This document shows, piece after piece, positions 16,165 through 60,843 of a DNA stretch of 64,000 nt (the stretch's first letter is position 1; each line of letters opens with the position of its first letter). The notes under the pieces are model-generated. The model searched no databases. It was not told where the DNA came from and saw only the letters and a program-made list of their open reading frames with translations. The DNA lies in NCBI GenBank assembly GCA_977020255.1, contig CDROCS010000067.1, positions 248,001-312,000 of the forward strand. Reading direction: 5' to 3'. The position numbers and the translations under genes were made by a program. Source of the stretch: Obrimoposthia wandeli. Taxonomy: Eukaryota.

Positions 16165-18293
16165 TGTTGGGGTTTCTATTTGAAACTCTTAAATAGATCC
16201 TCGTATGGAGGCCCCCAACGCGAGTTCTATAGCAATAGGGCTTGCAGTTGTTCGTGGCCTATTTAGATTTTTCCTTACCTGTCTCAATTTCTAATCTGAA
16301 GGTTTTGTTTTCAATCTGTGTTGTGGAGATGTGTAAAGAGTTGTGTGCACGGGGTACGGGAAAACTTTCCTTATTGTAGTTTAGTGTATGGCGGGTTGGT
16401 ACTTTCCTGCATGTAGGGGTTTGTTCAATTCAACACTGCTTAATTGTAGGAAAACTTTATTCTCTAAACTCACGCTAACAAGGTTTCTAAAAATTAGAAC
16501 AATTAGTCCTAACTACTTCACTAAACTTCACACAAATGGGGATGTCTTAACGTATCGATTTTAATCGGTCAAACAAATTTACGAGTTCTATACTCTTTAT
16601 TTCAAAATACAATTTATTTTAGTCAAAACACAATTTACTTTCTTTAATCAAAACACAATTTACTTTTTGAATCAAAATACAATTTACTTTCTTTAATCAA
16701 AACACAATTTACTTTCTTGAATCAAAACACAATTTACTTCTTGAATCAAAACAAAATTTACTTTCTTGAATCAAAACACAATTAACTTCTTGAATCAAAA
16801 CACAATTTACTTTCTTTAATCAAAACACAATTTACTTTCTTAAATCAAATCACAATTTACTCCTTGAATCAAAACAAAATTTACTTTCTTGAATCAAAAC
16901 ACAATTTACTTTCTTTAATACAAAACAAAATTTACTTTCTTGAATCAAAACACAATTTACTTTCTTTAATACAAAACACAATTTAATTTCTTAAATCAAA
17001 GCACAATTTACTCCTTGAATCAAAACAAAATTTACTTTCTTGAATCAAAACACAATTTACTTTTTTTAATACAAAACATAATTTACTTTATTTAATCAAA
17101 ACACAATTTACTTTCTTGAATCAAAACACAATTTACTTTCTTTAATACAAAACACAATTTAATTTCTTGAATCAAAACACAATTTACTTTCTTAAATCAA
17201 AACACAATTTACTCCTTGAATCAAAACACAATTTACTTTCTTTAATACAAAACACAATTTAATTTCTTGAATCAAAACACAATTTACTTTCTTAAATCAA
17301 AACACAATTTACTCCTTGAATCAAAACACAATTTACTTTCATTAATCGAAACACAATTTACTTTCTTTAATCAAAACACAATTTACTTCTTGAATCAAAA
17401 CACAATTTACTTTTATTAATCAAAACACAATTTACTTTCTTTAATCGAAACACAATTTACTTTCTTTAATCAAAACACAATTTACTTTCTTGAATCAAAA
17501 CACAATTTACTTTCTTTAATACAAAACACAATTTAATTTCTTGAATCAAAACACAATTTACTTTTTGAATCAAAACACAATTTACTTTCTTGAATCAAAA
17601 CACAATTTAATTTCTTGAATCAAAACACAATTTACTTTTTGAATCAGAACACAATTTACTTTCTTTAATCGAAACACAAATTACTTTCTTTAATCAAAAC
17701 ACAATTTACTTCTTGAATCAAAACACAATTTACTTTCTTTAGTCACTCACCTTTCTGCTGGGTTTGATTGTGTCCTTTAGTCCATTTATGCTTCCTCAAT
17801 GACTCTATTCTGTACTTGGTTCGGGTATGGATTCGATGGCCTATTATCTGCTGGTACTTCTTCCACGTCTCTTCTCACTGGGCTTTTCAGTGACTGGCAC
17901 AATCGCTTCACCTGCAAACTCGCCAATCTTATACTTTTCTTCAATTCCGATTTAATTGTGTTTGTGCACTGTGAGCTATCTTCTTATATAGTATGTAGAT
18001 CTGGCGCAAATGTGGCGCTAATGGACTAGAGGTCTCCTTAAATTGAAACAATTAACTAGCACTTAATTTAAGTGCACTTAGTTCTTTTCTTGCGAGTTCG
18101 TTTCTGGCGCTAATGGACTTGTCATCTGGTGATTTTTCTTTTCTTTTGAGCTCGTTTCTTAATTACTCTTTTTTTTCTCTATCTTTCTTAATCACTCTTA
18201 GCTTCTTCTTAATTACACTCAGTCCGGCTTAATCACTCTCAGTTCTTTTTTGGGCCCCAAACTTTCTTAATTCTTAAAATCCTAATCCTAACA
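16165..18293 (+). mobile_element. Solo LTR (about 2.1 kb), gypsy-type, with 4-bp TSD
   Basis: TGTTGG...CTAACA ends. GTAT is duplicated at 16161-16164 and 18294-18297. The 5' end is homologous to 28896. Orientation is arbitrary. Confidence 0.9.
16615..17742. repeat. Minisatellite inside the LTR, 22-26 bp unit AATCAAAACACAATTTACTTTCTT(T/G), roughly 45 copies
   Basis: Array read directly from the sequence. Confidence 0.95.
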
Positions 18294-28895: not shown

Positions 28896-30307
28896 TGTTG
28901 GGGTTTCTATATGAAACTTATAGATCCTCTTGAATGTGGAGGGCCCCAACGTGAGTTCTTATAGAAGCAGGACTTAAAGATGGTTGTGGCCTACTTAATG
29001 TTATAGTTGCCTGTCTCAATGCTTATCTGAAGGTGTTTGTTTTCCGATGTCTCTTAATCTGAAGGGTTTAGAACAATGCTTTCTAATGTAGGAAATCTTT
29101 TATTGTTAACACACTAGACTAAACAAAACAATACGTTTACGTACGTATTTCTAAAAAGTTACAGTAAAATTCCTAAGACTTCTGTAAGTCTCTACACAAG
29201 TGGGGATGAATCACGTATCGATTTTACTTTTAGGTTTGCTTTAGTTACTAGAGTCTTTACTCTAGAATTGCGGGCAAGTTTACAGAGCTGTTGCTCTAAA
29301 ATATAAATAGTTTACAGAGCTGTTGCTCTAAAAATGTGGGCACTTTTAGTTTCTTTATTTTGGGTAGAGTAATCACTCTAAAATATGGACGAGTAAATAC
29401 GGCAATTTAAATTGTTAATTCTACAACGATGCTTTAGTCAAGTCAATTCACTAATGACGATTTTGGTTTTACTTTATATGAAAACAATTTATCTAAAACA
29501 ATTCTTTCCCTTTGGGCACACAAAATTCACTTTCTTTTACGTATTTATCAAACAATAATTCACTTTCTTTTACGTATTTAAAAAAACAATAATTCACTTT
29601 CTTTTTACGTATTTATCAAAACAATAATTCACTTTCTTTTACGTATTTATCAAAACAATTATTCACTTTCTTTTTCGTATTTATCAAAACAATAATTCAC
29701 TTTCTTTTACGTATTTATCAAACAATAAATCAACTTCTTTTTACGTATTTATCAAACAATAATTCACTTTCTTTTTACGTATTTATCAAAACAATAATTC
29801 AACTTCTTTTTACGTATTTATCAAAACAATAATTCACTTTCTTTTTACGTATTTATCAAACAATAATTCAAAAACGATTCTCTCCCTTTGGGCCTCTCAC
29901 CTCCTCCGAATATCCTTAGGTCCTTCCTCGTGCTGGCTGTTATTCCTCAGCTGATCCGTCGGTGTTCGGGTGTCCTTCGAGTCCTTTGGTGCAGCGCGGA
30001 TCGTACGTTAGATCAGCGTCCTCTCGTTCCTTCAGTCCTCTGTGTGCTCACGATTCAAGCACGGTCCTCGTTCGCGACTTTTTGTCCTTTTCCAGTCGGC
30101 CTAATTAATTTCTGTTTTCTTCTTTTTTCGACTTCAACAATTTGCTTTTATACCTTTTCTCAACTGAGCCTCGAGACACGAGCAGTTGGCCGGTTCCCAG
30201 AAACTAACGATGTTTACTCAACAATTAGCGCAGTGACTTCCTGAATATCTCGGGTTCTCGCTTATTGCTTTCTGCACTCCGCGAGTAATCTAATTTTCCG
30301 AAATGAG
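28896..30307 (+). mobile_element. Truncated LTR of the same family as 16165-18293
   Basis: Starts TGTTGGGGTTTCTATATGAAACT, homologous to 16165. It ends abruptly at terminus C. Confidence 0.85.
29520..29870. repeat. Minisatellite inside the LTR, 33-35 bp unit TTCACTTTCTTTTTACGTATTTATCAAAACAATAA, about 10 copies
   Basis: Array read directly from the sequence. Confidence 0.95.
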
Positions 30308-34859: not shown

Positions 34860-37800
34860 CCTTAACACAACGACGTAGATTTGAATAAATAGCTCGAAGA
34901 GCAGTTATACCTAAGATATATATCCAGAGCAGTGACAAACTCCACTACCATCACAATACATCGACTTAATTAGTCAAAGCTAGATGGACCTAATAAAAGT
35001 ATCAACAGCGCCAGCAAAATTCCTATTAGCAACGGAAAAATACAAAGTTTCGTGTCGGCAACACAGGAAGATCCCAATGAGGAGAATTTGACTTCGGTCC
35101 TTGAGGATTGGGACGGTGTTCCATCGGTTATCCCAACAAATGCAGTCGCAAAACCAACCAGTAACAGTAGAATTTAATGACAAAGATAATTTTAATCATT
35201 TTCTCGATGAGTGGGAGGAAGTCAATCCATCTACTCCCGCTTTCCTTACCACCCGAGAACCCTCCCCCAGAAGAGACTAAGTCATTGCTTAGTTAGATGA
35301 AAGCGAGTGGCGGCTGTTCACTGATGACTAGGACAGACTTACACCATCACCACCTGCTGCTACAACCGTTAACGACATATTGTTGTTGCTGAAGCCGGAT
35401 TTTCAAAAGCTCCAGACATCTGTTAGATGAGCAAGGAGAAGAAATGCTACGAATGAGGAGAAATTATTTATTTAAAACATATGATTTTCAATATATTTTT
35501 AGAAAATCCAACTTGATATAGCCTTATTGGTACCTTCCGTGGGAAGGTAGGTCGAACTGAAGATCAATGTGAGCCAATGTAGCCAGGAGCTTCAGAGGAC
35601 TCAGCTGCAATATCTGGCTTGGTCTGGGCAGCTACAAGTAAATAATTTCATATATGAATAAAACAATTATTGTATTCGGTTCTAGGACAATTACCCGCCG
35701 GACATTTACCCGCCGGACAATTACCCCCCGGACATTTACCCGCCGGACAATTACCCGACTAGGACAAATACCCGCCGGACAAATACCCGCCGGACAATTA
35801 CCCGACTAGGACAATTACCCGCCGGACAATTACCCCCCAAAAAATACAGGGCGAGTTTATGCACTTTTAATATAAACAATAAATTAACATTTTTTACGAA
35901 GAGGAGTAATTTAATTGTATTTATTTATTTAGATTAATTAAATTAGTAAAAAGTTATTAATAAGGGGGTATAAAAACCTAAAAATTGGTTATTATTGGTT
36001 AAATAGGTTATTGAATAAATATTGTTAAGAATACTGGAAGGTAAGAAAAAAACAATTGACATGTGTTTATTTATTTGTATAGTTATTCTTGAATAAGAAC
36101 AATTCTATAACAGTCACATTGATCATCACAGAATCTACATCTGTAGGTTGTGTGCAATACCACAAAGAAAGTCTAAGAATTTTTAAAGTTAATATTAAAA
36201 TGGAAACAAACACACAGCTCATACTTTTATTGACGTTTAAATATACAGTTATAAAAAGTAATTTTAAATATGTAAAAGTAAAAAACTGAATTAAATTAAA
36301 ATAATAATAGTGGTTTAGCAAAATTATACAAATAAATTTTAGGACATGATAATTCGTAATTTTACTTTAATTTGTATTATCTGAAAATAAAAATGAGAAG
36401 TTCAATTAAATGAATTGTAAATATAATAATAATAATTTAAATTAAATCGTCGACATCGTCAAGTTGCCGGAAATCCTCCCGCAATCCCGCAGACTCGTGC
36501 CGAAATTATACTACCTGAAAAGTACAAACGTACACTGGCAGATGAGTATGAGTATGAGCTGTGTGTGTTTGTTTCCATTTTAATATTAACTTTAAAAATT
36601 CTTAGACTTTCTTTGTGGTATTGCACACAACCTACAGATGTAGATTCTGTGATGATCAATGTGACTGTTATAGAATTGTTCTTATTCAAGAATAACTATA
36701 CAAATAAATAAACACATGTCAATTGTTTTTTTCTTACCTTCCAGTATTCTTAACAATATTTATTCAATAACCTATTTAACCAATAATAACCAATTTTTAG
36801 GTTTTTATACCCCCTTATTAATAACTTTTTACTAATTTAATTAATCTAAATAAATAAATACAATTAAATTACTCCTCTTCGTAAAAAATGTTAATTTATT
36901 GTTTATATTAAAAGTGCATAAACTCGCCCTGTATTTTTTGGGGGGTAATTGTCCGGCGGGTAATTGTCCGGCGGGTAATTGTCCTAGTCGGGTAATTGTC
37001 CGGCGGGTAAATGTCCGGGGGGTAATTGTCCGGCGGGTAAATGTCCGGCGGGTAATTGTCCTGTTACCATTGTATTCATAGAGAAACATGATCAAGTACA
37101 TCAACTGCAAGATGAGCTGGGAGAGGATGTACCTATTACACTAACTAGCCAACAGCTACCAGAGGTTCACAAAGCAAAGAAATTGAAGGTGAAGAAGACG
37201 TTCGTGACAACGGAAGTGACGATCGCGATAGAGGATAAACTGCTACACTAGTGGGCAATGGGTTAATCTTTTACGAGAAGATCCCAGTCACTCCATCGAG
37301 CTGTCTCCTTCGCCGACTCGATGACTCCGGGAACCGTCACCATCTGCAGACTTATATCTATCTTGTTGACTCAATGACAGCCAGAATGACCACCAGTAAT
37401 TGGTCAGAGGTCAGCAACTTTGGGCCAGAATCTGATGCAAGCATGACAAGTTACATATACCACACCTCAGATTGCTGTATCAATCAGCCAGAATCTGTAA
37501 CATGGCTGACTCAATGCGGGTTGTAACAAGTTCTTGGCTGAAATGGTAACTCCGCACCCACAACTGCAATTGCAATCGTCACAGTATTATCTTGTTTACT
37601 ATAGGCAACATGGTGCGGTGGTACATCAGCTGGTGCGTGAGAAGCAGCAGAAGAAGTCAAAGGAGAGAAAGAAGCGATCGCCCCAAAAGAAGACGACATC
37701 AAGTCTGTCTACACTGTTTTGTGCCAGCAATTCCTCCTCTCCACAGATAGGTATCATCGGCTTGTGTATCTACGCCATCTGCAGCGACTCTCAAAATTGC

Positions 37801-47361: not shown

Positions 47362-47640
47362 AGTAGGGGGATGTGAGGTATCAAACACAAAGTAGGTCAT
47401 ACCCCCCCTGCTGAAGTTTTTTTTTTTTTTTTTTGGTGTGAGGTCTCAGACACAAGGTCAATGAAGTCAAGGTCATACCCCCCTGTTTTGTTTTACTGAA
47501 GTGATTTTTGAATTTTTGTTTTACTGAAGTGATTTTTTAAAATTTGAATTTTTGAATTTTTGTTTTACTGAAGTGACTTCTTTTTTTTTTGAATTTTTGA
47601 AATTTGAATTTTTGAATTTTTTATTTTTTATTTTTTATTT
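47362..47640 (+). repeat. Polinton terminal region (TIR candidate) with short direct repeats
   Basis: AGTAGGGGGATGTGAGG start. TGTGAGGT..CACAA..GGTCATACCCCC occurs twice; TTTGTTTTACTGAAGTGA occurs three times. Confidence 0.7.
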
Positions 47641-48182
47641 CAAAAACTTGTGTTTTTAAAATATTATTATTTCTCATGTGAATTTTATAATATTCATGTA
47701 GGTCAACAAATTATTTATTATTTATTTTCAAAAAGTTGAAACTTTATTTTATTTACAAATGTTAGTAGAATATATTTTGTTAATATTGTTTCCTATTTTA
47801 TATGAATATATTTGGTTAATTTAGTTTCCTATGTAAATAATTAATAAGAGAGAGACATTTGAGACAAATATGTATTATAATATCACAAGAGAATCATCCA
47901 AATAAAAAATCAGAGTGTAAAATCACAAAGTCACAAAATAAAAAATCAGAGGGCAAAATCACAAAGTCACAAAATAAATCAGAAGATAAAATCACAAAAG
48001 AATTTATACAATAAAAATAAAATAAATATTACAGATTTATACAATTTGAAAGTATTGATACAATAAAAATAAAAATTTATACAATACAAAGAAAATCACA
48101 TATCAAAGAATGGATTCAATAAAATAAATATCACAAGACAAAGTAATATCACAAATAAAATAACACAAGACAAAGTATTCAT

Positions 48183-51100
48183 TCATTCAATAAAAATATC
48201 ATCGGGATAAAAATGATGTCCATAGGCAACGGATCGGTTCTTCTCTATCCATTTCCTTTTATCATCGGAACTAAATAATGCAATTTTACTGTGCCGTATT
48301 GTGAAAAGCTGATGGTTAAATGATCTCATGCGCTCTTGCTGCACTCGTTCACTTACCCCGCTCTCATATACGGCCAAGTAATTTGCATGACGAAGTTCCG
48401 TCTGCTTTAAACTAACTCCCTTCGCTCTCATATGTCCCCCTCTCTCTGAAGTAGCTAAGCTATAGCACTTTGGACGTAGAAATATCCATTGTGAATAAGT
48501 GCACACCCCCTTACTTTCATCCTTAAACTTCCCTATTTCAGTGTTTGCCAGAGTAAATAGCGGATGATCCACGGGAAATTTCGATGTGTCCAGAAGCCCA
48601 TCAGAAATCATTGCAGGCAACAAGTCAGCTTTAACATTCACATTTTTACAATGAAGGAAAAAGCTATCTGTGTCACCTGCACTTATTCTGATATCACAAC
48701 TAAACTGTTGTCGATATTTCTCGAGTTGAATGTATTGTAACTCATACATCCGCAATTTACTTAGGTCTAATACTGCTTGCCCTATATAACTTGGTCAATC
48801 TAAGACGACATTATCCTGATTTAATAAAACCGCAATGAGATTACTGTCGATTTCAATCGACCTCCGAAATTTGGCTTTGCTACAATAGGTAACGAGTTGA
48901 CTGGAAGTCTGACAAATCCGAAGGTTAATTCTCTTCATGAGATTCTCAATGAGTTTCCCGTAAAGAGAATTAACTTTCAGTTTGTAGTAATCCTTATCGA
49001 AATCTGTTGCAGCTGCAGCCCTCTTAGCCGAATTATCCTTAATATATTGTTCGAAAACATTAGTCTGTGCAAACTTAATTGCTCTATGGACGAAATCTAC
49101 TTTAGCCCCAAGGCTAACGTACATTTGAAGCAATCTTGAATGCACAACATAATGTTTCTTGGGGTAATGTGTTAGCAATAACTTTTCAGTTTTGCTTCCT
49201 AGAGGGCATTCATTTCGCGGAGCTAAGGGGAGATCATCTAATTTATTGTGAAGCTCATTCGGGATAGATAAATATATTTCCAAAAGATGAGCGTAACTAC
49301 TTTTAGAGAGGTCAATACTCGCGAAGGAAGTTAATATGGAGTCGAGTTCTACCCGATCCGTTACCCATGAAAATTCCCCATAAGGTAAAAATTGAGACAT
49401 TGCCCACCCATACAAGTTGTTCACGTCAATATATAGTAGTTCCGAACCTGGTCCCGCATCCGTCTTGTGCGTATTGACGAAGGTCATTCCTCCTCGAATA
49501 CCCTCGCGGAACATCTGGTACATCTCCGGGTCCTGTATGAGCTCGACTCTGATGGGAGCAGGAATCGGAGACGCAGGAGTCGGAGTAGACGATATGGTGA
49601 TCGGAGACGCAGGAGTAGAGGTTATGGTGATCGGAGTAGTTGGAATCCGAGAAGGTACTGAATTGACCTCTGGAATAAGCAGCGACTTGAACGCGCTAGC
49701 GAAAGTCAAGCCTGAAATGGAAATAATTATTATTAATAATAACAAAGACAAAAAGTTGCAAATAGTTGCAATAATTTTAAATATTTGCAAAAAGATGCAT
49801 TTATGATGCAAAAACATGAATTATGCTAAAATAATAATTCTTACCGGGTATACTGAAGAAGTTCAGAGGCTCCAGCCCATCGTCAGAGAGAGCCTTGAGC
49901 CGGAAAGCCGTGAAGACGTCAGCGAGCAGATACACGTCCATCTTCATGTAGATGAGCATGTAGTCCCATAGGGACGTGCACCCACTCTGAAGCCACATCT
50001 GCTCGGCTAACTGGTATTGGGCTGGAGTTATCATCGTATCCCAGATAGGAGGAAGGGACGTGATGGCGCGGAGAGCAGTCTCTGACACAGCCATATTATA
50101 AGGGAAGATGCCTTTGCCGCTGACAAGATGCGGTGGGAAGACAGAATGGGTCAAAGGCGTAACTCCCGAAAGTGAAACCAAGTTTGCGAGACCGGAATTC
50201 AAAAACTGCATTGAATCAATGAAGCGAATACAGATCCCCTTGATATATACCATTAATACCTGGAATTTCTCTGTGGATTGAGGGATCACAGAGATACTCC
50301 AATGCGGAAACTTAGAAATCGCATGTTTCAGTATATGGTGCATATCATATCCCCGTAAATTATGGAAAATTACGGGGAAGATCCTATTCAGCCTCCTTGA
50401 TAAATTACATTTTGAATGCGCGGCCCCGAGAAATTTTCCAGTCATATGGTCATGATCACGGACCTTATTGACTAGGCTCTTCTTGCACAGGTAACAGATA
50501 GTCGCTGCATTGAAGGCGACAATCTGTACGTCTGTGAGAGGGCGCATCACCTCAGCCGCGTGATTCCTGTACCAAGGAAGTACAACCGAAGTTGCCAAGA
50601 CCTCCAACTTCTTAAGGAAGTCCACGATACACAATTCTCCCGTGAATTCTGTGTAGTCGTGTGAAAAGTTACCGGTAGCCGAAATCGGAGTCATGAGCAT
50701 CCCCACAGAAATAGGGAGATGGATTTGGTGACACAGCTTCGAAATCAGCATACACAGCAAAAGGAGGAGAAATGGTTTTTGCGAAATCCGTAAATTCAAT
50801 ATATTTATTAGTGGGCATTGAATAAAGAGTCGTATGATCTTTATTCATTGTACACCTAGGAACGTGCTTATCAAAGCTAGTTTGTCGTCGGAATCCGTGT
50901 AGACATTTATAGCACCATATGCTCTGAACACGAGTTCCGACAACATTTCTGTTCTAGTAATTCATAAATGTATTGAAATTCGTGATTGCCGCATAATGAT
51001 TTTCCACATCATTCTCAATAAGCAGAAGATTGATGGGCCTAGCGTCAGGATTTGTAGTGCGGTAAACCACATCTACAAAAGGATTTTTAAAAATCTCCTG

Positions 51101-52755
51101 ATTTGGCGATGGTGTCAAACCAAAACTATTGAACGTGAATACGTTGATTGAGAGAGAAGGATTCTCTCTCTCGAATCTCGGTATGTTCAATAGCCGCATA
51201 GGCATATCAGAAAGGTCATAATTTAACCTATCGAGCAGATCATCATATTGACCTGCTCGCTGAGGATTTACAGGGAATAAGCCCCTAAAAAGAATAGCCA
51301 GAATGCTATATATAAAACAAAGCGGGCCAGTATTCTGTACATTCACAATGCAGTGAGAATACCGTAACCCGTATGGCGTAGGAATATACCCGCTTCCTTG
51401 GAGTCTATTAATGATAGTTGTCCTAGTGACAATAAAGAGATCTCCAGGAAACGGTTTATTCGCCAATTACTTGCGTTTTTGGAGTACGTCTCGATTTTCT
51501 GATTAAGGGAATCAATCCCATTAGAAATAAAATCTGACTCTGAGAAAGGTAGAGCCACATTCGAGATGTTCCAGGGTCTTCTATCAGAATCATTTATGAA
51601 TTCGACATGGACCCCGAACTGTACTTTGCAAGTCGCAAATTTACGTACAGACTCCCTTAACGCTGACAAAAGTGAAGTAGGTACAGACAGATCAGTCATA
51701 TTATCACTGGAAACATCCAGCGAAATAGTGACGATACTACCACCTAAACCAGTATGGGACCCCACATTCCCCGTAGCCCGCTTCGAGGAGGATGAACCCG
51801 AAGTTGGGTTTCCTTGCCTCTTACGAGTACCAATGACCGGCAACGAACTAGTGGAGGGTATCGCACTATTCGGTGACGGACCATTAGTAGAGGAATGTGC
51901 ACCAGTAGAAACGGGAGGCAAATTACCCGCTCCCACTTGCACTATGGAAGAAATAGCAATGAGGCCAGAGCCCGAAGGTGTAATAAAACTGGGCATTGAG
52001 CTAGAAAAATTGCTCATAGAGCCAGATACATTGCTCATAGAGCTAGTTACATTGCTCATAGAGCTAGACAAATTGCTCGTTGAGCCAGAGCACGAAGGCA
52101 TAACAAAACTGCTCGTAGAGGCAGAAACAAAACTGCTCGTAGAGGCAGGAACAAAACTGGGCATAGAGCCAGAGCCCGAAGGCATAACAAAACTGCTCAT
52201 AGAGGCAGAAACTTGGCCCGAAGCCCCATCCGAAACTTGGCCCGAAGCCCCATCACATACTTGGCCCGAAGCCGCATATTCATCTTCTTCTTCTTCTGCT
52301 CCATTATTGCTCCATTCATCTATTATCTCGAACTCTTCGGTCTGCATATCATCATCGCTGATCATCTGCATATCAACATCTTCATTGTCATCGCTGATGA
52401 TGATGGTAGAATGATGAGCAGCAGCAACTGGGGCAGATACTGGAACAGTAGCAGAAATTGGACCAGCAACCCGAGAAATAGTAGCAGATCTATTCTGAAA
52501 GATGGCCTTCTTGCCACGTTGCTGGAAATGACGAAGATGGACACGATGACGCGCCACAAACTCCGACCAATCAATATCCTCCGCGGAGAGACATACTGGA
52601 CATACGTAGAATTTTTGTCCGTTGAACTTCTGTCCAAAGTAGCTCTTCATTTTTCCGTCACATTCCTTGTGACTCTCCTCGAAGCATAATTCTTTGTTCA
52701 TATTGCAATTCTAGAAAGAAATAAATTAGCAGAAAAATAACAATAAAATTACCAT
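48183..52755 (-). pseudogene. Protein-primed family B DNA polymerase, spliced (introns 52711-52752 and 49712-49844), with nonsense and frameshift lesions
   Basis: NVQN..CFIYSIL, YADFEA (ExoI), CYLC..RDHDH..CNL, FHNLRGYD, YIDVNNLYG, KLKVNSLYGK, GDTDS, LRPKCY. TGA at 48795-48797, TAG at 50954-50956, frameshifts near 51430 and 50720. Confidence 0.93.
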
Positions 52756-52802
52756 TTTCAATTTCGTTTATAATAGGGGATTATTTGTTGATTGATGCTT
52801 GC

Positions 52803-52809
52803 TTATATA
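52803..52809 (-). promoter_or_regulatory. TATA box upstream of pPolB, with CCAAT at about 52832
   Basis: GTATATAAG on the minus strand about 48 bp before the ATG at 52755. Confidence 0.55.
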
Positions 52810-52886
52810 CTATTTTCAAGCTAGTATTAAGCCAATCAGATTTATTCATTATTTAAACCAACCAGATTAATTTAAAACAGAATAGT

Positions 52887-53396
52887 TTACTGACAGATGT
52901 GAGTAGTTGAATTTTCATTAATATTTAAATAATCCAAACTAGCTGCAAAGCATTTCTTGTATGCACAATGCTCGCCATGTTTAATATATGGACAATTGAT
53001 ATTTGATGGATTTAATTGTTTTAATGTTTTCCAGTAATTTATCACTCTAAATTCAGGAAAATATTTATTGATTGTCTTTATTTTAGCTCCATTATTTTCA
53101 TCCAAAACATAGAAAATTGATTTGGATACATCACAACAACGTTTTATTTTCTCAGTTATTTCTTGTATCTTGAAATAACTATTACCATCAACTAGTTTTA
53201 GTCGATGGTAATGCTTAATGAGATATCTATTTATTTTTCGTGATTTTCTATTCATAATGTCCCATATGGGTTGCATTTTAAAAACATAATGTTTAGGATA
53301 GAAGATTGCATCCACATCCAATATACATAGTTATATTATTACAAATTCAGTATTATTATCAATAAAAGCTTCAAAATCAATAAAATAAACAGACAT
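52887..53396 (-). pseudogene. Polinton accessory DEDD-like protein with one in-frame TAA (53331-53333)
   Basis: MSVYFIDFEAF..II*LCILD, then HYHRL..DG and a C-terminal CPYIKHGEHCA. Confidence 0.75.
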
Positions 53397-53433
53397 TTTT
53401 TATAGCAATAATTTTATTTGATATTGTTTATAT

Positions 53434-53811
53434 CTATTGTTTATGCTTTAACCAAAGCAGACAGAGTTGTCCACATGACTGTGTTAAAACATTTTGATAA
53501 TGTTTCTTACTAAAATGTACTTTCTTTCCAGAATCAAATACTGTAGATACTAATTTAGAAGGGTAATATATCCCAAAGGGGTCAAAAACAAAGATTTCAT
53601 TTTCATTAACATGTATTGCAATCCAATGTTCACCACGCAAATTAGATGAATGTGTATTGATTACATATCCACCTAGTCGAGTCAAAGAGGGGATGTGATC
53701 AAGGCTGTAGACTCCATTGAAACGCGAACCGAGTAGTTTTCTTCCGCTTTTTGTTATCTCGTCCGAACTAGAATATATATTAATTAATAAATTCAAACTG
53801 ACTTACTTCAT
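53434..53811 (-). CDS. Adenain-like cysteine protease, spliced (intron 53768-53806)
   Basis: Spliced N-terminus MNSDEIT. Catalytic motifs GEHWIA, FDPFG and YQ..TQSCGQLC. Confidence 0.92.
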
Positions 53812-53842
53812 TTATATATCTTCTTTATTGTTTTCATTCTGT

Positions 53843-55065
53843 TTATACTAGTACTGTTCCTCCCTTGGTAATTTGAACCTCAGAATCGAATACTCCATAG
53901 ATTATAATATTAGTAGGGTGTTCAAGTGCTTTTGAAAACTTGATTTCTACTTTCAAATTTCCCTGTTTAGGGATTTGAGCTTGATTAATATCGAAATCAG
54001 GAGAGAGAACAAATGTGAACAGTGTATACTTGTCCTTGAAATCAGTCATTGAAATTCCAATATTAGCATCCTTATCCAAATGACCAAGATTTCTAATTAA
54101 AGATTGCACATATGAAAACACATAATCATCGTTTTCAAAGTCATTCGTATAAGATTCTTGATAATCAATATTTCGTGCAAGTTTAATTGATTCATGTGTC
54201 CAAATTGAGAAACCTCATTTTTAGACTCACCTCCATAGGTAGACGTGTTTTGGAAAGCAATTAAAACAAAGTTTGGAAGTTGCATATCACCAAAAATCTG
54301 ATCCTTGTAATAAGATAGTGCTCCCGTAGGGATAGCGTGAGAAACAAGATTAGTTTTTCTAATAGGATAACATGCATTTTGCTTCTCCAACCCCATTCGA
54401 TGTGCAACAAGTACAGATGGTTCCACCTTTACTCGTCGAACCAGCAGTTTTGCTTCCGTAATCTCAATTGCGGTTTTAATAGTATCAGCGCAAACAACAC
54501 TAAAACCTACTGGATTTCTTTTCATTCGAATATGTGCACTTACACCGGGTAAAAGATACTTTGGTTGCTTAAAGAAATCCAAATGAAGACTCCCACAAAG
54601 TGACAATACTTTAGACTTTGCAATCGAAGCAATTCTTCTTTTTTCATCATTGTCAAACCCAATTGCATCAAGATTAATCAATTTCGTATCATTACCGTAA
54701 TTCAACAATGTTTCAATCATTGCTTTATGGGTGTAACTAGTATTATTTCCTTCAACTTTCACATTATTGAGACTGAGAATCACATCCTTGAAAAGAGTAT
54801 GCAACATGTAATTAGCTGATTTGATATCCATACCATCATCCAAATCACCTCCACCTTCCTTTGTAACTTTCAATTTAACGAGAAATAAACTATCATTCAA
54901 ATCAAGATATTGAGTATTGGATCCATTAATATTGAATTCTAAATCCGGAGAAGATGTCCCGTTAACCGTATTTGTCGGAAATATTTCTTCAAAACTAGCA
55001 CTATCAACCACAACCTGAGGTATAGGTTTATCGAATATACACAATTCAGTTTTAGCACAACTCAT
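53843..55065 (-). pseudogene. Double jelly-roll major capsid protein with a frameshift near 54180
   Basis: MSCAKTELCIFD..., LHLDFFKQPKYLLPGV, YTLFTFVLSPD, GNLKVEIKF. The two ORFs join after FGHMN. Confidence 0.9.
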
Positions 55066-55427
55066 TACTTAAAAATTGTTCCACCTAGTTTCAAACGTTT
55101 GTTTATACCCGATGCTTTAGATGTTTTCTTACGTTTATAACCACTTCCCTTTTGAGTTTTCTTTTTCAAAAATTCAGCTAGACTTGGTGAAATTTCATTC
55201 ACCTGATCCAAGGCTGCATCCTTTAGTGTAGGAAGAAATTTCTCATCACCAGACAAGTATTTTGATCCAACATTAGCAATAAATTTCCCGAGTCGCTTGA
55301 GTAGTGGGAAAGCAAAGCGACCAAAAACCTTCATCCATCCTGATCCATACTGTTTTCCGGCAAAATAAGGCAAATCACCTCCTTGCATCGGTTTACTATA
55401 CGCATCGATTATACTTGAATCAATCAT
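55065..55427 (-). CDS. Small basic virion core/precursor protein with adenain-type GG/GSG sites
   Basis: MQGGD, QYGSGWMKVFGRFAFPLL and QKGSG. Located between penton and MCP, as in Polintons. Confidence 0.8.
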   Translation of the reverse strand: MIDSSIIDAYSKPMQGGDLPYFAGKQYGSGWMKVFGRFAFPLLKRLGKFIANVGSKYLSGDEKFLPTLKDAALDQVNEISPSLAEFLKKKTQKGSGYKRKKTSKASGINKRLKLGGTIFK

Positions 55428-56452
55428 ATTTTTCTAAAATGTATTGTTAAACTTGTTTTAGCTCCAAATGAAAATTTAATTAATCTTCCTGAATCATCCC
55501 GAATGTTAACTTCAATATTGTTTATAGAAGAAGAACTCACAGGAATATACATTGGATTTTCAATTGGGATATGTATAATATCTCCATACTTGTGCTTTTC
55601 CTGTTGAACCCAAATAGATTTTATTAATGGAAGTTTATTTCCACCCACAAATATCGGTTCAGTAATACTTGTGTAAATATAAATCTGATTATACGCATTA
55701 CTTAGCTTTGCCCGATTAGATGCTCGGAAAACTTTATTAAGATTTTTAAAACTGTTTTCATTGAATCCTATAATTGTAGCTAAATTTTTATCCATATTTA
55801 TTTCTTTTACATGTGGTTTCAATTTAAACTCAATTATCTCCTTTTTAACATAAAAGCTTTCAAATATATTATCAATATTTTTCATAAAATATTGACAAAG
55901 ACTTTCAACATTGGAAAATAAGCAATCATTTTCGAATGCATACTGCTCACGTACATCCTCTTGATTATAATGATGCATCTTTAACTTTAATGTCGGTAAA
56001 TCATATATTTGATTTGGTAATTCCGATTCATAAAACATACTTTCAATAGGAGCTTCTTTCATACCGTAACTTAATGCTAAACTTTTATTATCAATTTCTA
56101 AATTGAAAGCTTGTCTCGTAGTGCGAGTTATACAAATTTTGTTTTCGCCGCTAAGGTAAATAACATATTTACTATTAATTGGCGTTAAATACTTGACGAA
56201 AAATGCTCCATGTTTCATTTTCACACCAGCTTTAACTTCAGTTTTTATTCTTTTCTCCACAACATAATCTATAATTGACCCTCCTTTAATGGATAGAGGA
56301 GAGTAATTGAAAGAAAATTCCGTCAGAGCAGCTTCCCAATGCCCAGGTAAATTGATTGAGCTTTGATAATCAATACTAAAACTATTAGCAGTATTATTCG
56401 GCTGAGTTAATGGTGAACCATTACTTGGTAAAACAACATACATTGAGTTCAT
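55424..56452 (-). CDS. Penton (minor capsid protein)
   Basis: YVVLPSN, WEAALTEFSF, IYIYTSITEP, YIPV..INNIEVNIRDDSG. ATG at 56452 overlaps the integrase stop. Confidence 0.9.
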   Translation of the reverse strand: MNSMYVVLPSNGSPLTQPNNTANSFSIDYQSSINLPGHWEAALTEFSFNYSPLSIKGGSIIDYVVEKRIKTEVKAGVKMKHGAFFVKYLTPINSKYVIYLSGENKICITRTTRQAFNLEIDNKSLALSYGMKEAPIESMFYESELPNQIYDLPTLKLKMHHYNQEDVREQYAFENDCLFSNVESLCQYFMKNIDNIFESFYVKKEIIEFKLKPHVKEINMDKNLATIIGFNENSFKNLNKVFRASNRAKLSNAYNQIYIYTSITEPIFVGGNKLPLIKSIWVQQEKHKYGDIIHIPIENPMYIPVSSSSINNIEVNIRDDSGRLIKFSFGAKTSLTIHFRKI

Positions 56453-57477
56453 TCTATTTGAGAAGCTAATATCCAACTAGGTTCAGTATATCCATGCCAC
56501 TTAACATGATATTGTTTATGCTTTCCTCTACCTTTTGTCTCTAAGATTTCTTGAATTCTGTATACTCTAGGCTTTGATGGTAATACTTGTAGTTCTTCAT
56601 GATAAAACTTTCCTGCAATTTCATTATTGGTTTCATCCTCAATGAAATACATTACCGGCACACGTTTATTATCAATTTTAGTTATACGAAATACTTCATC
56701 GCTCCAATTCTCTTTGAAATTCTTTATAAAAGGAGTAGTACTAATTTGAGAAATACGTACATAATCACCAACTTTATACTTGGGTTTCCGCGCAACTTGA
56801 CTTTGGTTACGGCGTTGCCAAATTTCCATAGCATTCTCATCTGTAACATCAACAGGTCTCTTTCGGTCTAATGATGAGTGTTCACTATGATTGTATGCAT
56901 GTATTATTTGAGGTAAAACAGTAACCCATGACTTATTTCCCTGCTTTGTGAAATACTTTTTCAAACGATCTCTCAATGTTCGATTAAAACGTTCAACTAA
57001 AGCGGCTTTATATTGGGAAAATACTGAGTAATGATTAATATTATGTTTTTTCAATAGTGTTTCAACATGTTTATTATAAAACTCCTTTCCACTATCCGTT
57101 TGGAAATTTCTTGGTTTTATTTCTTTAATCAAAAGCTTCATTGCGGTTAAAACATCGGTACCAGACTTAGACTTTAATGGAATGGCTCGCGCGAATCTGC
57201 TAAAGACATCAACACAAGTTAAAATATATCGATATCCGTTGTTAATACTAGCATACGGAATCATTTCCATCAAATCTGCTTGCCATAAATCATTCGGGCC
57301 GCTCGTTTTGTATGATCTCGTTGGGAACCGACGTCTCATTGGTTTGTTTAAGCTGTAAGCTAATTGATTTCTCAACCACGCCTGAGTTTCCTGCTTTGTC
57401 TTCTTTGACTCTTTTGCTAATTTTGAAACCCCTGTGTAACCAACGGGGTGACTTGGATTGAACCATATTTTCTCCAT
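56449..57477 (-). CDS. Retroviral-like (rve) integrase with C-terminal chromodomain
   Basis: WQADL, CVDVFSRF, QTDSGKEF, ALVERFNRTL, then YRIQEIL..YHVKWHGY. Confidence 0.96.
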   Translation of the reverse strand: MEKIWFNPSHPVGYTGVSKLAKESKKTKQETQAWLRNQLAYSLNKPMRRRFPTRSYKTSGPNDLWQADLMEMIPYASINNGYRYILTCVDVFSRFARAIPLKSKSGTDVLTAMKLLIKEIKPRNFQTDSGKEFYNKHVETLLKKHNINHYSVFSQYKAALVERFNRTLRDRLKKYFTKQGNKSWVTVLPQIIHAYNHSEHSSLDRKRPVDVTDENAMEIWQRRNQSQVARKPKYKVGDYVRISQISTTPFIKNFKENWSDEVFRITKIDNKRVPVMYFIEDETNNEIAGKFYHEELQVLPSKPRVYRIQEILETKGRGKHKQYHVKWHGYTEPSWILASQIE

Positions 57478-57580
57478 TGCAGCAAGATGATTTGATTTTT
57501 AAATTGAATTTAGGAATAGATGGAAGTGATCCCATATATAAATTCATATTATTATTGATTCGAATTATGCTTATAATCAT
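57290..57580 (-). CDS. Small hypothetical protein overlapping the integrase 5' end
   Basis: ATG overlaps the upstream stop (ATGA). Contains MGSLPS and KIKSSCC. Confidence 0.35.
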   Translation of the reverse strand: MIISIIRINNNMNLYMGSLPSIPKFNLKIKSSCCNGENMVQSKSPRWLHRGFKISKRVKEDKAGNSGVVEKSISLQLKQTNETSVPNEIIQNERPE

Positions 57581-57782
57581 CGGTTTATTAGTCTACTAGC
57601 AAGTGCACCAACTATTGAGCTAATAATTGGTACGAGAAATCCTAAAAATCCACCACTTTGCTTATAAAGCAACTTACGTTTACCGATTCGTATTTGGGAT
57701 GAAACAAAGCAAGTAGAGGTTTCTTATGTCGATTCATGTTAGCCTTGACAATTATTTTACCAGAAACTATTTTCTGTATCAT
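57577..57782 (-). pseudogene. Small Polinton QxGGF protein (amphipathic virion-protein precursor) with a 1-nt frameshift near 57685
   Basis: MIQKIVSGKIIV..RHKKPLLAL, then RKLLYKQSGGFLGFLVPIISSIVGALAS. Length of 206 nt is one short of a full frame. Confidence 0.7.
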
Positions 57783-57997
57783 ATTAAGTAATCATCAATT
57801 ACAAAAGTAGGGAATGATTTAAGAATAGCTGGGCGGCGAATAGCAGGTGCACGCATGAGAGAATTGAAATAGGCAATACTCCTAGATTTCTTAACAACAG
57901 TTCTTTTAGATTTTTGAGCAACCATTTTCCTTGCACTTAAAACTGATTTAATCAATTTTTTAACTTCGGGTTTAACAGTTTCCTTTTTAAAATTCAT
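57779..57997 (-). CDS. Small Lys/Arg-rich protein (possible DNA-condensing protein)
   Basis: 72-aa ORF with ATGA overlaps at both ends. Confidence 0.55.
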   Translation of the reverse strand: MNFKKETVKPEVKKLIKSVLSARKMVAQKSKRTVVKKSRSIAYFNSLMRAPAIRRPAILKSFPTFVIDDYLI

Positions 57998-58644
57998 CTT
58001 CTCAAAACTGGTTTCTTTGTTTGTTTATAAACGGTTATTCCCGATGGATTGAATACATCAGTTCTAACTCTAAAGTCATCGGGACAATCTTGAGTAAAAT
58101 CAATAAAAATGTATCCATGAGGAATAGTAGTTGCATCTTGAAATGAATCAATTAAAAACTTTCTATTATTCGGGTAAGCTTGTCTTGAAACAAAATCAAC
58201 AACCGTCTGATCACGTGGATTCTTGAAGAGAACAAGGTAATGTACATTTAAATTACGAGTTCTATGGTTCCCTCCTTGATGAAATAGATTTTGTGTGATG
58301 AAAATAACAGTTACTTCTCGATGTCGTCCTATTTTAGTGAATAAATTATTGAAATCACTCTCTTTATTTGCTTCTTGATACAGATCATCAATAACAATAA
58401 CATCATGTCGTTGTAATCGCTCAGACCAATTATCATCGAATCCATTAATGACTTTTATATTTTTGATTTTCTTAAACTCTTTACTGGTTAAACCAGCTTC
58501 TCCATCTCCTCCCTGATGCCAGTATATTTTATTAAACTTAAAACTAAAGTATTTATTATTTTGCAGTAGTTTACATACAAAATGTGTTTTCCCACTACCA
58601 CTAGGACCTACAATCTGAAAAACTGAATTATTTTTTAAGTTCAT
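57994..58644 (-). CDS. A32/FtsK-like DNA packaging ATPase
   Basis: GPSGSGKT, VIVIDDL, TQNLF, LFKNPRD. Confidence 0.95.
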   Translation of the reverse strand: MNLKNNSVFQIVGPSGSGKTHFVCKLLQNNKYFSFKFNKIYWHQGGDGEAGLTSKEFKKIKNIKVINGFDDNWSERLQRHDVIVIDDLYQEANKESDFNNLFTKIGRHREVTVIFITQNLFHQGGNHRTRNLNVHYLVLFKNPRDQTVVDFVSRQAYPNNRKFLIDSFQDATTIPHGYIFIDFTQDCPDDFRVRTDVFNPSGITVYKQTKKPVLRR

Positions 58645-58687
58645 ATTAAAAATATTAGATTATCGGGATAATGTTTATAAGACAAAA

Positions 58688-58969
58688 CTATTTAAAATAT
58701 TTTATTACGAAACATCCAGCAACTAACAATAAAAAACTCTTCTCGTAGAAAAAGCTCCTTTTCTCTTCTTTGTTTGCGAGTTTCTTCTGATTGTATCCCT
58801 GAATGAGAAGATTGACTGCCTTGTCGTGCACCATTCTTCTTACGTGCTCTTCCAGGGGTAGATTTGAGACATCAATGAGTTGCAGAACATCTGGTTCTAT
58901 GACATTCTTCGAGATGAAGCTCTTCACCGCCTTGTCAACATCTTGCTTGAAATAGTTTGGAGTAGACAT
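58688..58969 (-). CDS. Hypothetical 93-aa accessory protein
   Basis: ATG at 58969 (MSTPNYF), with GTATATAAG at 59003-59011. Confidence 0.55.
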   Translation of the reverse strand: MSTPNYFKQDVDKAVKSFISKNVIEPDVLQLIDVSNLPLEEHVRRMVHDKAVNLLIQGYNQKKLANKEEKRSFFYEKSFLLLVAGCFVIKYFK

Positions 58970-59044
58970 AATGATGATGATGAAGAAGTAAAAAGTAATC
59001 TGCTTATATACTATACATCTGAAATCTGATTGGTTAATAAATAC

Positions 59045-59135
59045 ACTGACTAATAAAGACACTAAAGACACTGACTAATAAAGACACTAAAGACACTAAA
59101 GACACTGACTAATAAAGACACTAAAGACACTGATT
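59045..59135. repeat. Short tandem array (GACTAATAAAGACACTAAAGACACT-like) upstream of the 93-aa gene promoter
   Basis: Read directly from the sequence; 3-4 imperfect units. Confidence 0.85.
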
Positions 59136-59156
59136 AAAGATAAAGACGAATAAAAT

Positions 59157-59879
59157 TTACACATGATAACGATTAAAAATACGTATTTGATGAAGCATAG
59201 CTTCATTAGGAGCAGCAATAGTCCGTTTAGCTTTAACAAGATTCGAAGCAGCAGTAACACCAATCGAATGAGATAAAAATGCAATAACAATACAAGCAGC
59301 ATGTAAACTACCATAATGACCACATACTAAAATCTTACCACCATTTTCGATAGTTTCTTTAATTATATTATTAGTCTGTTTATAATACTTCATTATTGTT
59401 TCTCCTAATTTTGAGTTTACAAAGACAGAAGTATATTTTAATTTCTTATAAGATATTTTATCCAGTATAGATGTATTGATTACATGAGTGAAATTGGAAT
59501 TCAAAAGATTAGTTTCATCAAACCCATCTCGATAATTACCAATATATAATTGATTTACTAAAATCTCACTCATCGCTGTTTTGTTTAACTTTTCTACATT
59601 AAGTTGAGTAAATCTAGCACTAAACAAACTATCAAAAAGATGGGTCATGTGGTTCATTTCCATACTCGAAGCATGAGCTATTATGGGTTCCATAAAAGCC
59701 AAAGCATTTAAAAAATCTATCCGTCTCTTATCTTCAATAATTGGATCTATAATAATTTCTTCTTCTATCGTCACTTCATCAATAGTTTCTTCTCTTCTTA
59801 TAACTGTTGTTGTTGTTGCTGGTAGTGATGATGTTGCTGGCGATGATGTTGCTTCTGGTGCTGAATTGATTTTCTCCAT
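59157..59879 (-). CDS. Dual-specificity phosphatase-fold protein with a degenerate catalytic loop
   Basis: LYIGNY, FTHVINTS, GGKILVCGHYGSLHAACIVIAFL, VKAKRTIAAPNEAMLHQI. TATATAA at 59906-59912. Confidence 0.85.
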   Translation of the reverse strand: MEKINSAPEATSSPATSSLPATTTTVIRREETIDEVTIEEEIIIDPIIEDKRRIDFLNALAFMEPIIAHASSMEMNHMTHLFDSLFSARFTQLNVEKLNKTAMSEILVNQLYIGNYRDGFDETNLLNSNFTHVINTSILDKISYKKLKYTSVFVNSKLGETIMKYYKQTNNIIKETIENGGKILVCGHYGSLHAACIVIAFLSHSIGVTAASNLVKAKRTIAAPNEAMLHQIRIFNRYHV

Positions 59880-59929
59880 TTTATCAATTCCGACTCAATT
59901 TAGTCTTATATATTAAACAAGGTTAGATT

Positions 59930-60156
59930 TCATTGGAGCATCAGTTTCATCATATGATTTGATTGGAGTATTATTCAACCTTTCCATTGTACTTAACATC
60001 TCATGTAAATGTAGTTGATGACGTAACCTAAAGAGTTAAATAAACTACATATAAATATTACTCATGATTATTTTTCCTAATTAAAGCATTGAGAATAACT
60101 GAAGCAAGATCTTTTAATGCATCCTGAACCTCTTTACATTCAATAATTTCATCCAT
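59930..60156 (-). CDS. Candidate spliced 63-aa ORF (intron 60028-60061)
   Basis: MDEIIECKEVQDALKDLASVILNALIRKNNHE|LRHQLHLHEMLSTMERL...; the unspliced frame stops at GAG TAA. Confidence 0.4.
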
Positions 60157-60284
60157 TTTATGATAAAGCAAATCAAATATTGTTTATAACCCATGAAAAA
60201 TCTATTTTTAGACCACATTACAACTATTTGCAACTATTTGCAAGTAATGACATGTGATGTCTTTGTCTTAGTATAAACAATATT

Positions 60285-60843
60285 TTGATAATGATTTTAT
60301 TGAAAATGGATAATCAAAATAATCAAAATAATGAAAGTAGAGCTAGTACATACATAGGTTCCGGTAGTAATTTATTTTCTAATATGAATTATAATAGAAA
60401 TAATCAGAGAGAAAATATTAATCCATCAAGTCAAACAATAACAAGTCCTACGCGAGTAACCGAAGAACGTGAGTCCTTTAAGGATAGGACTAATACTAGA
60501 CGATAAACAAGAATGTTAACCAATTGAGACTAATCGACCAATTAGAATCGAGCATTAGAGGATAAACAATTGAATATTTCAATTTATAATTATCAATATG
60601 AATTTCGAAAAGCTATATCAACCTATGCATACATATTATGGATATGAGATGCACTTTTTGAAGAAAGCTCATAACTATAATTTTATTTTTCCTGTCAACA
60701 TCGAGCCGCTTAAATTTGATTTTGAAATATTAAATTTGACTTCTGTGGATAAAGAGAGAATCAATATTCTCTTGTCTCAATTCGGAATCAACTATGCGCT
60801 TCAGGAAAACAAAATCGTAAGCACTTTAAATTGCACACAATAA
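60285..60843 (+). pseudogene. Divergent accessory gene or genes of the Polinton, probably frameshifted
   Basis: Two short ORFs (73 and 81 aa) downstream of GTATAAA. Function not recognised. Confidence 0.3.

Follow-up and report, generated by a model that had tools for sequence, protein, structure and literature searches.

Core genes of Polinton/Maverick elements have been described as intronless. In vertebrate Mavericks, no introns were seen in intact elements (PMC8097293). In nematode Mavericks, the core genes were described as intronless and introns as confined to cargo genes (10.1101/2022.07.12.499685). A eukaryote-wide survey of the protein-primed DNA polymerase (pPolB) applied cut-offs of a 650-aa match and a 900-aa ORF (10.1101/2022.07.12.499685 / PMC10748475). 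Intervening sequences have been reported in other settings. Dinoflagellate introners are copies of a host transposon family, and about 90% of the tested pairs fit insertion after integration (PMC11957031). Some Polinton-like viruses carry group I introns in a short gene (PMC12220804). In adenovirus, the E2B products pTP and polymerase are made from spliced mRNAs, and pTP is coded on two exons (PMC11304566).

The locus compared here lies in a window of 64,000 nucleotides from Obrimoposthia wandeli, the whole stretch of DNA that was analysed. A pPolB gene on the minus strand of this window is interrupted by a 133-nt segment at 49712..49844, in phase 1 and with GT-AG ends. The predicted upstream exon (49845..52710) codes for the N-terminal region, an EndoVII/HNH-like insert and the exonuclease domain, and the predicted downstream exon (48183..49711) codes for a Pro/Ser/Thr-rich linker and then the polymerase domain. 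Judged from the sequence, the segment is most probably a major-class spliceosomal intron that would be removed by the host spliceosome, with a probability of about 0.9. The window copy of the gene carries frameshifts near 51440 and 50735 and a stop at 50954-50956 in the upstream exon, and a premature stop at 48795-48797 in the downstream exon. These two frameshifts and two stops indicate that the window copy is dead.

This gene is part of a Polinton/Maverick element. One end of the window copy, AGTAG, is at 47362; the other end is lost, with a break near 60823. The remaining terminal inverted repeat (47362..48671) overlaps the 3' end of pPolB. On the same strand as pPolB are genes for an adenain-like cysteine protease (53434..53802; Peptidase_C5 PF00770, E 3e-4, 21.1 bits vs a curated cut-off of 21.3), a putative double jelly-roll major capsid protein (53843..55068; two frames in the window copy, Atlas 0.97), a probable minor capsid protein (55424..56476), a retroviral-like integrase (56449..57498; rve PF00665, E 4e-14), an A32-like packaging ATPase (57994..58659; PF04665 above cut-off) and a dual-specificity phosphatase-like accessory protein (59157..59894; DSPc, E 5e-13). 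No Pfam match was found for the major or the minor capsid protein. The major capsid protein falls with Atlas clusters labeled 'Major capsid protein' or PF21738 (16-52% of members), with recognition just below threshold. The Atlas look-alikes of the product of 55424..56476 are unnamed Preplasmiviricota proteins, and we take it to be the minor capsid protein from gene order. Inverted arms of 1.2-1.4 kb were found in two of the six fetched regions, with a copy span of about 15.5 kb, and a 6-bp target duplication, TACAAT, flanks the copy in C3341.

Copies in C3779, C2560, C1394 and C435 (L035-L049) are often rearranged, inverted or adjoining elements of other families, and a further diverged polymerase fragment (41-46%) is present in C1394. 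Elsewhere in the window, the 15 host-side ORFs gave only weak Pfam matches. A foldback element of about 1.4 kb at 35670-37077 has 408-nt perfect inverted arms and outer 15-nt tandem repeats. Tandem arrays are located at 1-665, 16492-17800 and 29524-29880, with units of 177, 25 and 34 nt, respectively.

The first-pass annotation had proposed an AT-rich GT-AG intron inside the polymerase gene at these positions, and its coordinates, length, ends, phase and composition were all found to be exact. The segment of the window copy starts with GTAAGA, ends with ATTTCAG and begins one base into a codon. Its GC content is 0.203, compared with 0.537 upstream and 0.513 downstream over 300 nt on each side. 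It is placed with the exonuclease III motif on one side and polymerase motif A on the other, and the Pfam profile DNA_pol_B_2 (PF03175) is matched above cut-off by both halves of the gene, at profile positions 7-159 and 201-386. Two ORFs had been joined in that annotation. The fusion stands, but the two ORFs are only part of the gene, which starts about 2.9 kb upstream. The claim that removal of the segment restores an xPGLxW/F-type motif is borne out by the alignments. The last whole codon 5' of the segment is reached in 114 of 120 homologues, and Gly comes next in 106 of these 114, followed by L/M/Y/F and then mostly W/F (two places past the L/M/Y/F position, W in 80 and F in 21). These alignments indicate that one conserved codon of an xPGhxW/F motif is split by the segment.

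The same boundaries were obtained by an unguided scan, in which every AT-rich GT-AG pair of the entire gene was scored against a profile of 90 unbroken homologues. A single candidate was returned, with ends at exactly 49712-49844; in the five control loci, 1-2 false calls of lower strength were made. In a full spliced alignment the donor was unchanged, but the acceptor was placed 54 nt further on, at 49658. This acceptor was rejected, because it drops 11 codons that are identical in amino acids between the window's family (family A) and its sister (family B), with 6 silent changes. The choice of 49658 stems from the gap costs of the Pro/Ser/Thr-rich linker, which is absent from the homologues. 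Twelve other frame-keeping GT-AG pairs near the site were also rejected by A/B codon conservation. Several properties of a U2-type intron are found in the segment: GT...AG ends, an extended donor and a pyrimidine-rich acceptor, all conserved among copies, with flanks colinear with unbroken homologues and an interior free in length and frame. In the window copy, TAAT runs are present 5' of the acceptor, without CTAAC or CTAAT. In contigs of four runs of unknown kind, representing at most one sample, coding and non-coding DNA are covered alike; none of the 15 joints listed in these contigs is at the mid-gene site, which is neutral either way.

Loss of the GT/AG ends among sister copies, which the first-pass annotation had held to speak against an intron, was not observed. 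In 30 copies of family A, the segment is 133-150 nt long and falls into all three frame classes, with GTAAGA in 30/30 and the final AG in 29/30. Exact family-A donor junctions number 207 in the genome, and an N-gapped pattern for an intron-less family-A allele gave 0 genome matches. The upstream frame reaches a stop inside the segment after 14 codons in family A and 8 codons in family B, and none of the 134 A-type matches has an open frame of more than 1025 aa. The linker right after the acceptor changes in length by multiples of three in 29 of 30 family-A copies (it was not found in one), and thus behaves as coding DNA. Counts of indels and codon changes within family A do not separate the segment from the exons, since decay after insertion dominates. 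Indel events per 100 nt are 9.0 in the upstream exon, 3.8 in the segment and 2.7 in the downstream exon, and single-copy variants in the upstream exon comprise 55 non-synonymous and 13 synonymous changes. Most copies of family A are decaying, as the dead window copy is, and present-day activity is not supported by these counts.

The first-pass annotation had also suggested a survey of related Polintons, and an insert was found at the same site in family B. This sister family was revealed by 16 genome matches at 81-82%, and its upstream half shares 77% amino-acid identity with that of family A. Among 46 family-B loci, one of which duplicates another, 44 were measured (39 and 5 more); in the other two, the acceptor was not found in one and the donor lies outside in one. 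All 44 inserts are at the same base and phase as in family A, have GTTTGT...CAG and are 103-559 nt long, with a GC content of 0.19-0.29 (39 loci). An intron-less family-B allele gave 0 matches in the genome. The long family-B inserts (L083-L108, about 300-1100) represent tandem-repeat growth, with repeats of 45 and 101 nt and AT runs, and these repeats resemble family B's own downstream non-coding DNA.

The coding sequence on both sides of the insert was compared between the two families. The dN is 0.165-0.178 in both halves, and the dS is 1.5-1.7 downstream and 2.5 or saturated upstream (11 pairs). In the 22 codons flanking the site, all 16 base differences are silent. A low dN with a near-saturated dS on both sides requires a translated product that spans the shared insert. 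The core argument is that both families kept a polymerase under purifying selection on either side of an insert that blocks read-through. These values bear directly on the proposal that the segment is a disabling insertion, such as a MITE, an introner or junk, in a non-autonomous lineage amplified by an intact polymerase, for instance that of a third family, C. Non-autonomous derivatives are indeed common, as the first-fetched family-B copies are without the polymerase domain and the window copy is dead, and introners inside Maverick-like elements have been published for dinoflagellates (PMC11957031). The proposal is largely refuted by silent sites near saturation together with a dN of 0.17 on both sides of the shared insert. 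Dispersed copies, as expected of an introner or MITE, were not seen: an internal 23-mer of the segment has 178 genome matches vs 207 for the junction, a count that is based on one 23-mer only and would miss diverged copies. There is also no target duplication at the segment ends beyond one G. A disabling insertion is thus very unlikely.

Two possible origins of the insert were considered and found to be unsupported. A dispersed introner origin has no excess of insert sequence outside the element behind it, and for a tandem AG-GT duplication, none is present at the empty family-C site.

The polymerase could also be read as two genes, one for the exonuclease part and one for the polymerase part, with an AT-rich spacer between them. 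Both halves are long open frames and the site is near the domain boundary. In addition, a TTGCAA-repeat motif of 16-20 nt at 49749-49771 in the segment has an inverted counterpart in the non-coding DNA at 60221-60243 (E 0.003), near the other end of the element. Against two genes, it is a single codon within a conserved motif that is interrupted, and the first Met of the downstream frame comes about 60 codons later than the conserved 11 codons that follow the acceptor. The upstream tails differ between families A and B, and the splice-type ends are kept in both. The two-gene arrangement is therefore judged highly improbable. It is scarcely conceivable that the segment is skipped by recoding (a frameshift or ribosomal bypass) or is a self-splicing intron, even though group I introns have been reported in Polinton-like viruses (PMC12220804). 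The lengths of 103-559 nt in all three frames, the in-frame stops and the GT-AG ends do not fit such mechanisms, and a search of three loci returned no Rfam intron family (E up to 1), with five weak microRNA-family matches far below the cut-off.

Families A and B differ unevenly along the element. When 52417-60823 was compared with L065+L076, the capsid-integrase module was about 95% identical and the polymerase about 70% identical. The switch in identity falls inside the N-terminal region of the polymerase, and it likely represents an exchange of the polymerase. A family-B derivative (L060-L075) has lost its polymerase domain through a deletion that reaches into the terminal region. This derivative is present in many near-identical copies and is likely non-autonomous. 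A second intron that was suspected in the family-B downstream exon was found to be this kind of internal deletion into the terminal region.

Family C, which is 46-54% identical, has no insert. All 13 loci read P-G-L unbroken at the site, and all 150 matches span the site. The other element genes compared also align between families A and C without an intron-sized gap, and the phosphatase-like gene had no match in the compared family-C region. Among database proteins, 201 of 208 reach the site and 192 of these also match the downstream half, a share of intron-less proteins that is inflated because protein databases favour unbroken ORFs. Seven of the other nine continue by eye in homologous sequence, and P0130 and P0154 end otherwise. 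In a quick tree of the upstream half (75 rows, midpoint root, quick search only), A and B form one clade with an SH-aLRT of 100 among 71 other rows.

Metagenome relatives were also compared. Of 17 loci, 14 were included in the spliced alignment and L113, L117 and L118 were left out. Eight of the 14 (L114, L115, L120-L125) carry 2-7 AT-rich GT-AG inserts, four carry none, and two have one doubtful insert call each with an unbroken frame. The inserts are 42-50 nt long in L114 and L115 and 58-80 nt long in the GC-rich L121-L125, and L120 has five of 22-24 nt. In L121-L125, insert positions coincide and insert sequences are diverged; these loci may come from few organisms. None of the eight insert-bearing loci has an insert at the window residue where it is covered, and the nearest is 3 residues on. 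GT-AG inserts of this kind thus recur at different positions within this family of polymerases. A pattern search of viral contigs for relatives gave three matches, none of them a relative.

These distributions bear on the age of the intron. It could be ancestral and have disappeared repeatedly, or A and B could each have acquired it separately. Similarity between the A and B insert sequences is not significant, as 13 and 38 of 300 shuffles reach as high a score, and it is consequently by position that the two inserts are taken as homologous. Moreover, relatives gain inserts at many sites, and databases under-sample split genes. Nevertheless, A and B are sister families grouped in a single clade amid intron-less rows and carry the insert at an identical base and phase, and none of the eight metagenome loci carries it at the window residue. 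Repeated loss or double gain is thus unlikely, and a single gain on the stem of A and B is the simplest history.

A second intron-like segment is located at the 5' end of the gene. It is 42 nt long (52711..52752, minus strand), in phase 0 with GT-AG ends, and directly follows the ATG at 52753-52755. It contains a CTAAT branch-like motif and in-frame stops. A TATA-like box, TATATAA, is read at 52803..52809 (minus strand) about 50 nt upstream of the ATG, with a putative function, and it has counterparts in families B and C. The 5' segment is common to all three families with a length of 39-47 nt, which indicates that it is older than the mid-gene segment. In a family-A variant with another N-terminus it is 45 nt long and different in sequence, and in family C it is 47 nt long (39 in one copy) and follows three codons. 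The layout of an ATG followed by GT is present in 8 of 10 further family-C loci and 7 of 8 further A-type loci (within L129-L146). The segment is less strictly needed in A and B, since an in-frame ATG is found three codons later. In human adenovirus, the start codon is placed on a tiny upstream exon, similar to the layout of the 5' mini-intron here. The 5' segment, like families B and C and the degraded state of the window copy, is absent from the first-pass annotation.

The AT-rich host genome of 1.35 Gb contains a PRP8 gene that has an AT-rich GT-AG intron itself and whose best score among solved structures is to hPrp8; the host is likely an animal. Adjoining this gene (L128, G000:C2392, about 323400-328000, minus strand) are ORFs of 632 and 400 aa and small Cys/His-rich RING-like ORFs, which are possibly another virus-like insertion.

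A mechanism can be proposed from these features. In the nucleus, host RNA polymerase II would transcribe the element from the TATA-like box. The mini-intron after the ATG and the mid-gene intron would both be removed by the major spliceosome, and the spliced product would be one polymerase with the N-terminal region, the exonuclease domain and the polymerase domain. The mid-gene intron would have been gained once on the A+B stem at a G|G site and then inherited via the element's own replication. Polintons replicate from DNA to DNA. Introns would therefore be kept in the element DNA, which fits the absence of intron-less alleles.

Intron retention might further act as a switch, giving an N-terminal product of about 960-1000 residues without the polymerase domain. 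One gene could then supply primer protein in excess, or the host splicing state could gate replication. This idea is modelled on the separate pTP and polymerase mRNAs of adenovirus and on the location of the intron at the exonuclease/polymerase junction; the N-terminal region of pPolB is presumably the primer or terminal-protein region. A switch is doubtful, and the differing upstream tails of A and B would speak against a selected N-terminal product.

The trait of intronless core genes, which is descriptive and not defining for Polintons/Mavericks, is not seen here, as pPolB is interrupted in families A and B. An intron-split pPolB contradicts the standing description, and similar inserts recur in relatives. 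Survey length cut-offs would be expected to miss or truncate split pPolB genes, and screens that rely on long ORFs to find intact elements would overlook lineages with introns or count them as dead. One genome provides a comparison with and without the intron: two sister families with the insert and one without it, all with the 5' mini-intron. This comparison dates the gain of the intron inside a replicating virus-like element. The introns would also argue for nuclear transcription by the host machinery, without dependence on a cytoplasmic giant-virus factory. In the available text of PMC8502044, PMC5718144, PMC11296320, PMC6431247, PMC11244446, 10.64898/2026.07.28.741278, 10.1101/809541 and 10.1101/2024.03.25.586562, spliceosomal introns in Polinton core genes are not reported. 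In the main-text passages covered, no description of a spliceosomal intron inherited within a Polinton polymerase gene was found.

Compared with known systems, the element is similar to the vertebrate Mavericks/Polintons in its pPolB, integrase, ATPase, protease and putative capsid genes, its terminal inverted repeats, its 6-bp target duplication and the degraded state of most copies (PMC8097293). It shares the core gene set with nematode Mavericks, in which pPolB exchange between elements with common structural genes and an HNH-type insert in some pPolBs have also been described (10.1101/2022.07.12.499685, PMC10748475). Adenovirus makes a related protein-primed polymerase from spliced nuclear mRNA as well; however, its shared 5' exons are joined to separate terminal exons, and the text available for it describes no intron in the middle of the polymerase-domain coding region (PMC11304566). 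The dinoflagellate Maverick-like proviruses are similar in having intron-type sequence inside Polinton-like elements. In contrast to the dinoflagellate introners, the intron in the window is not dispersed, is older than the separation of A and B and is passed on as part of the element (PMC11957031).
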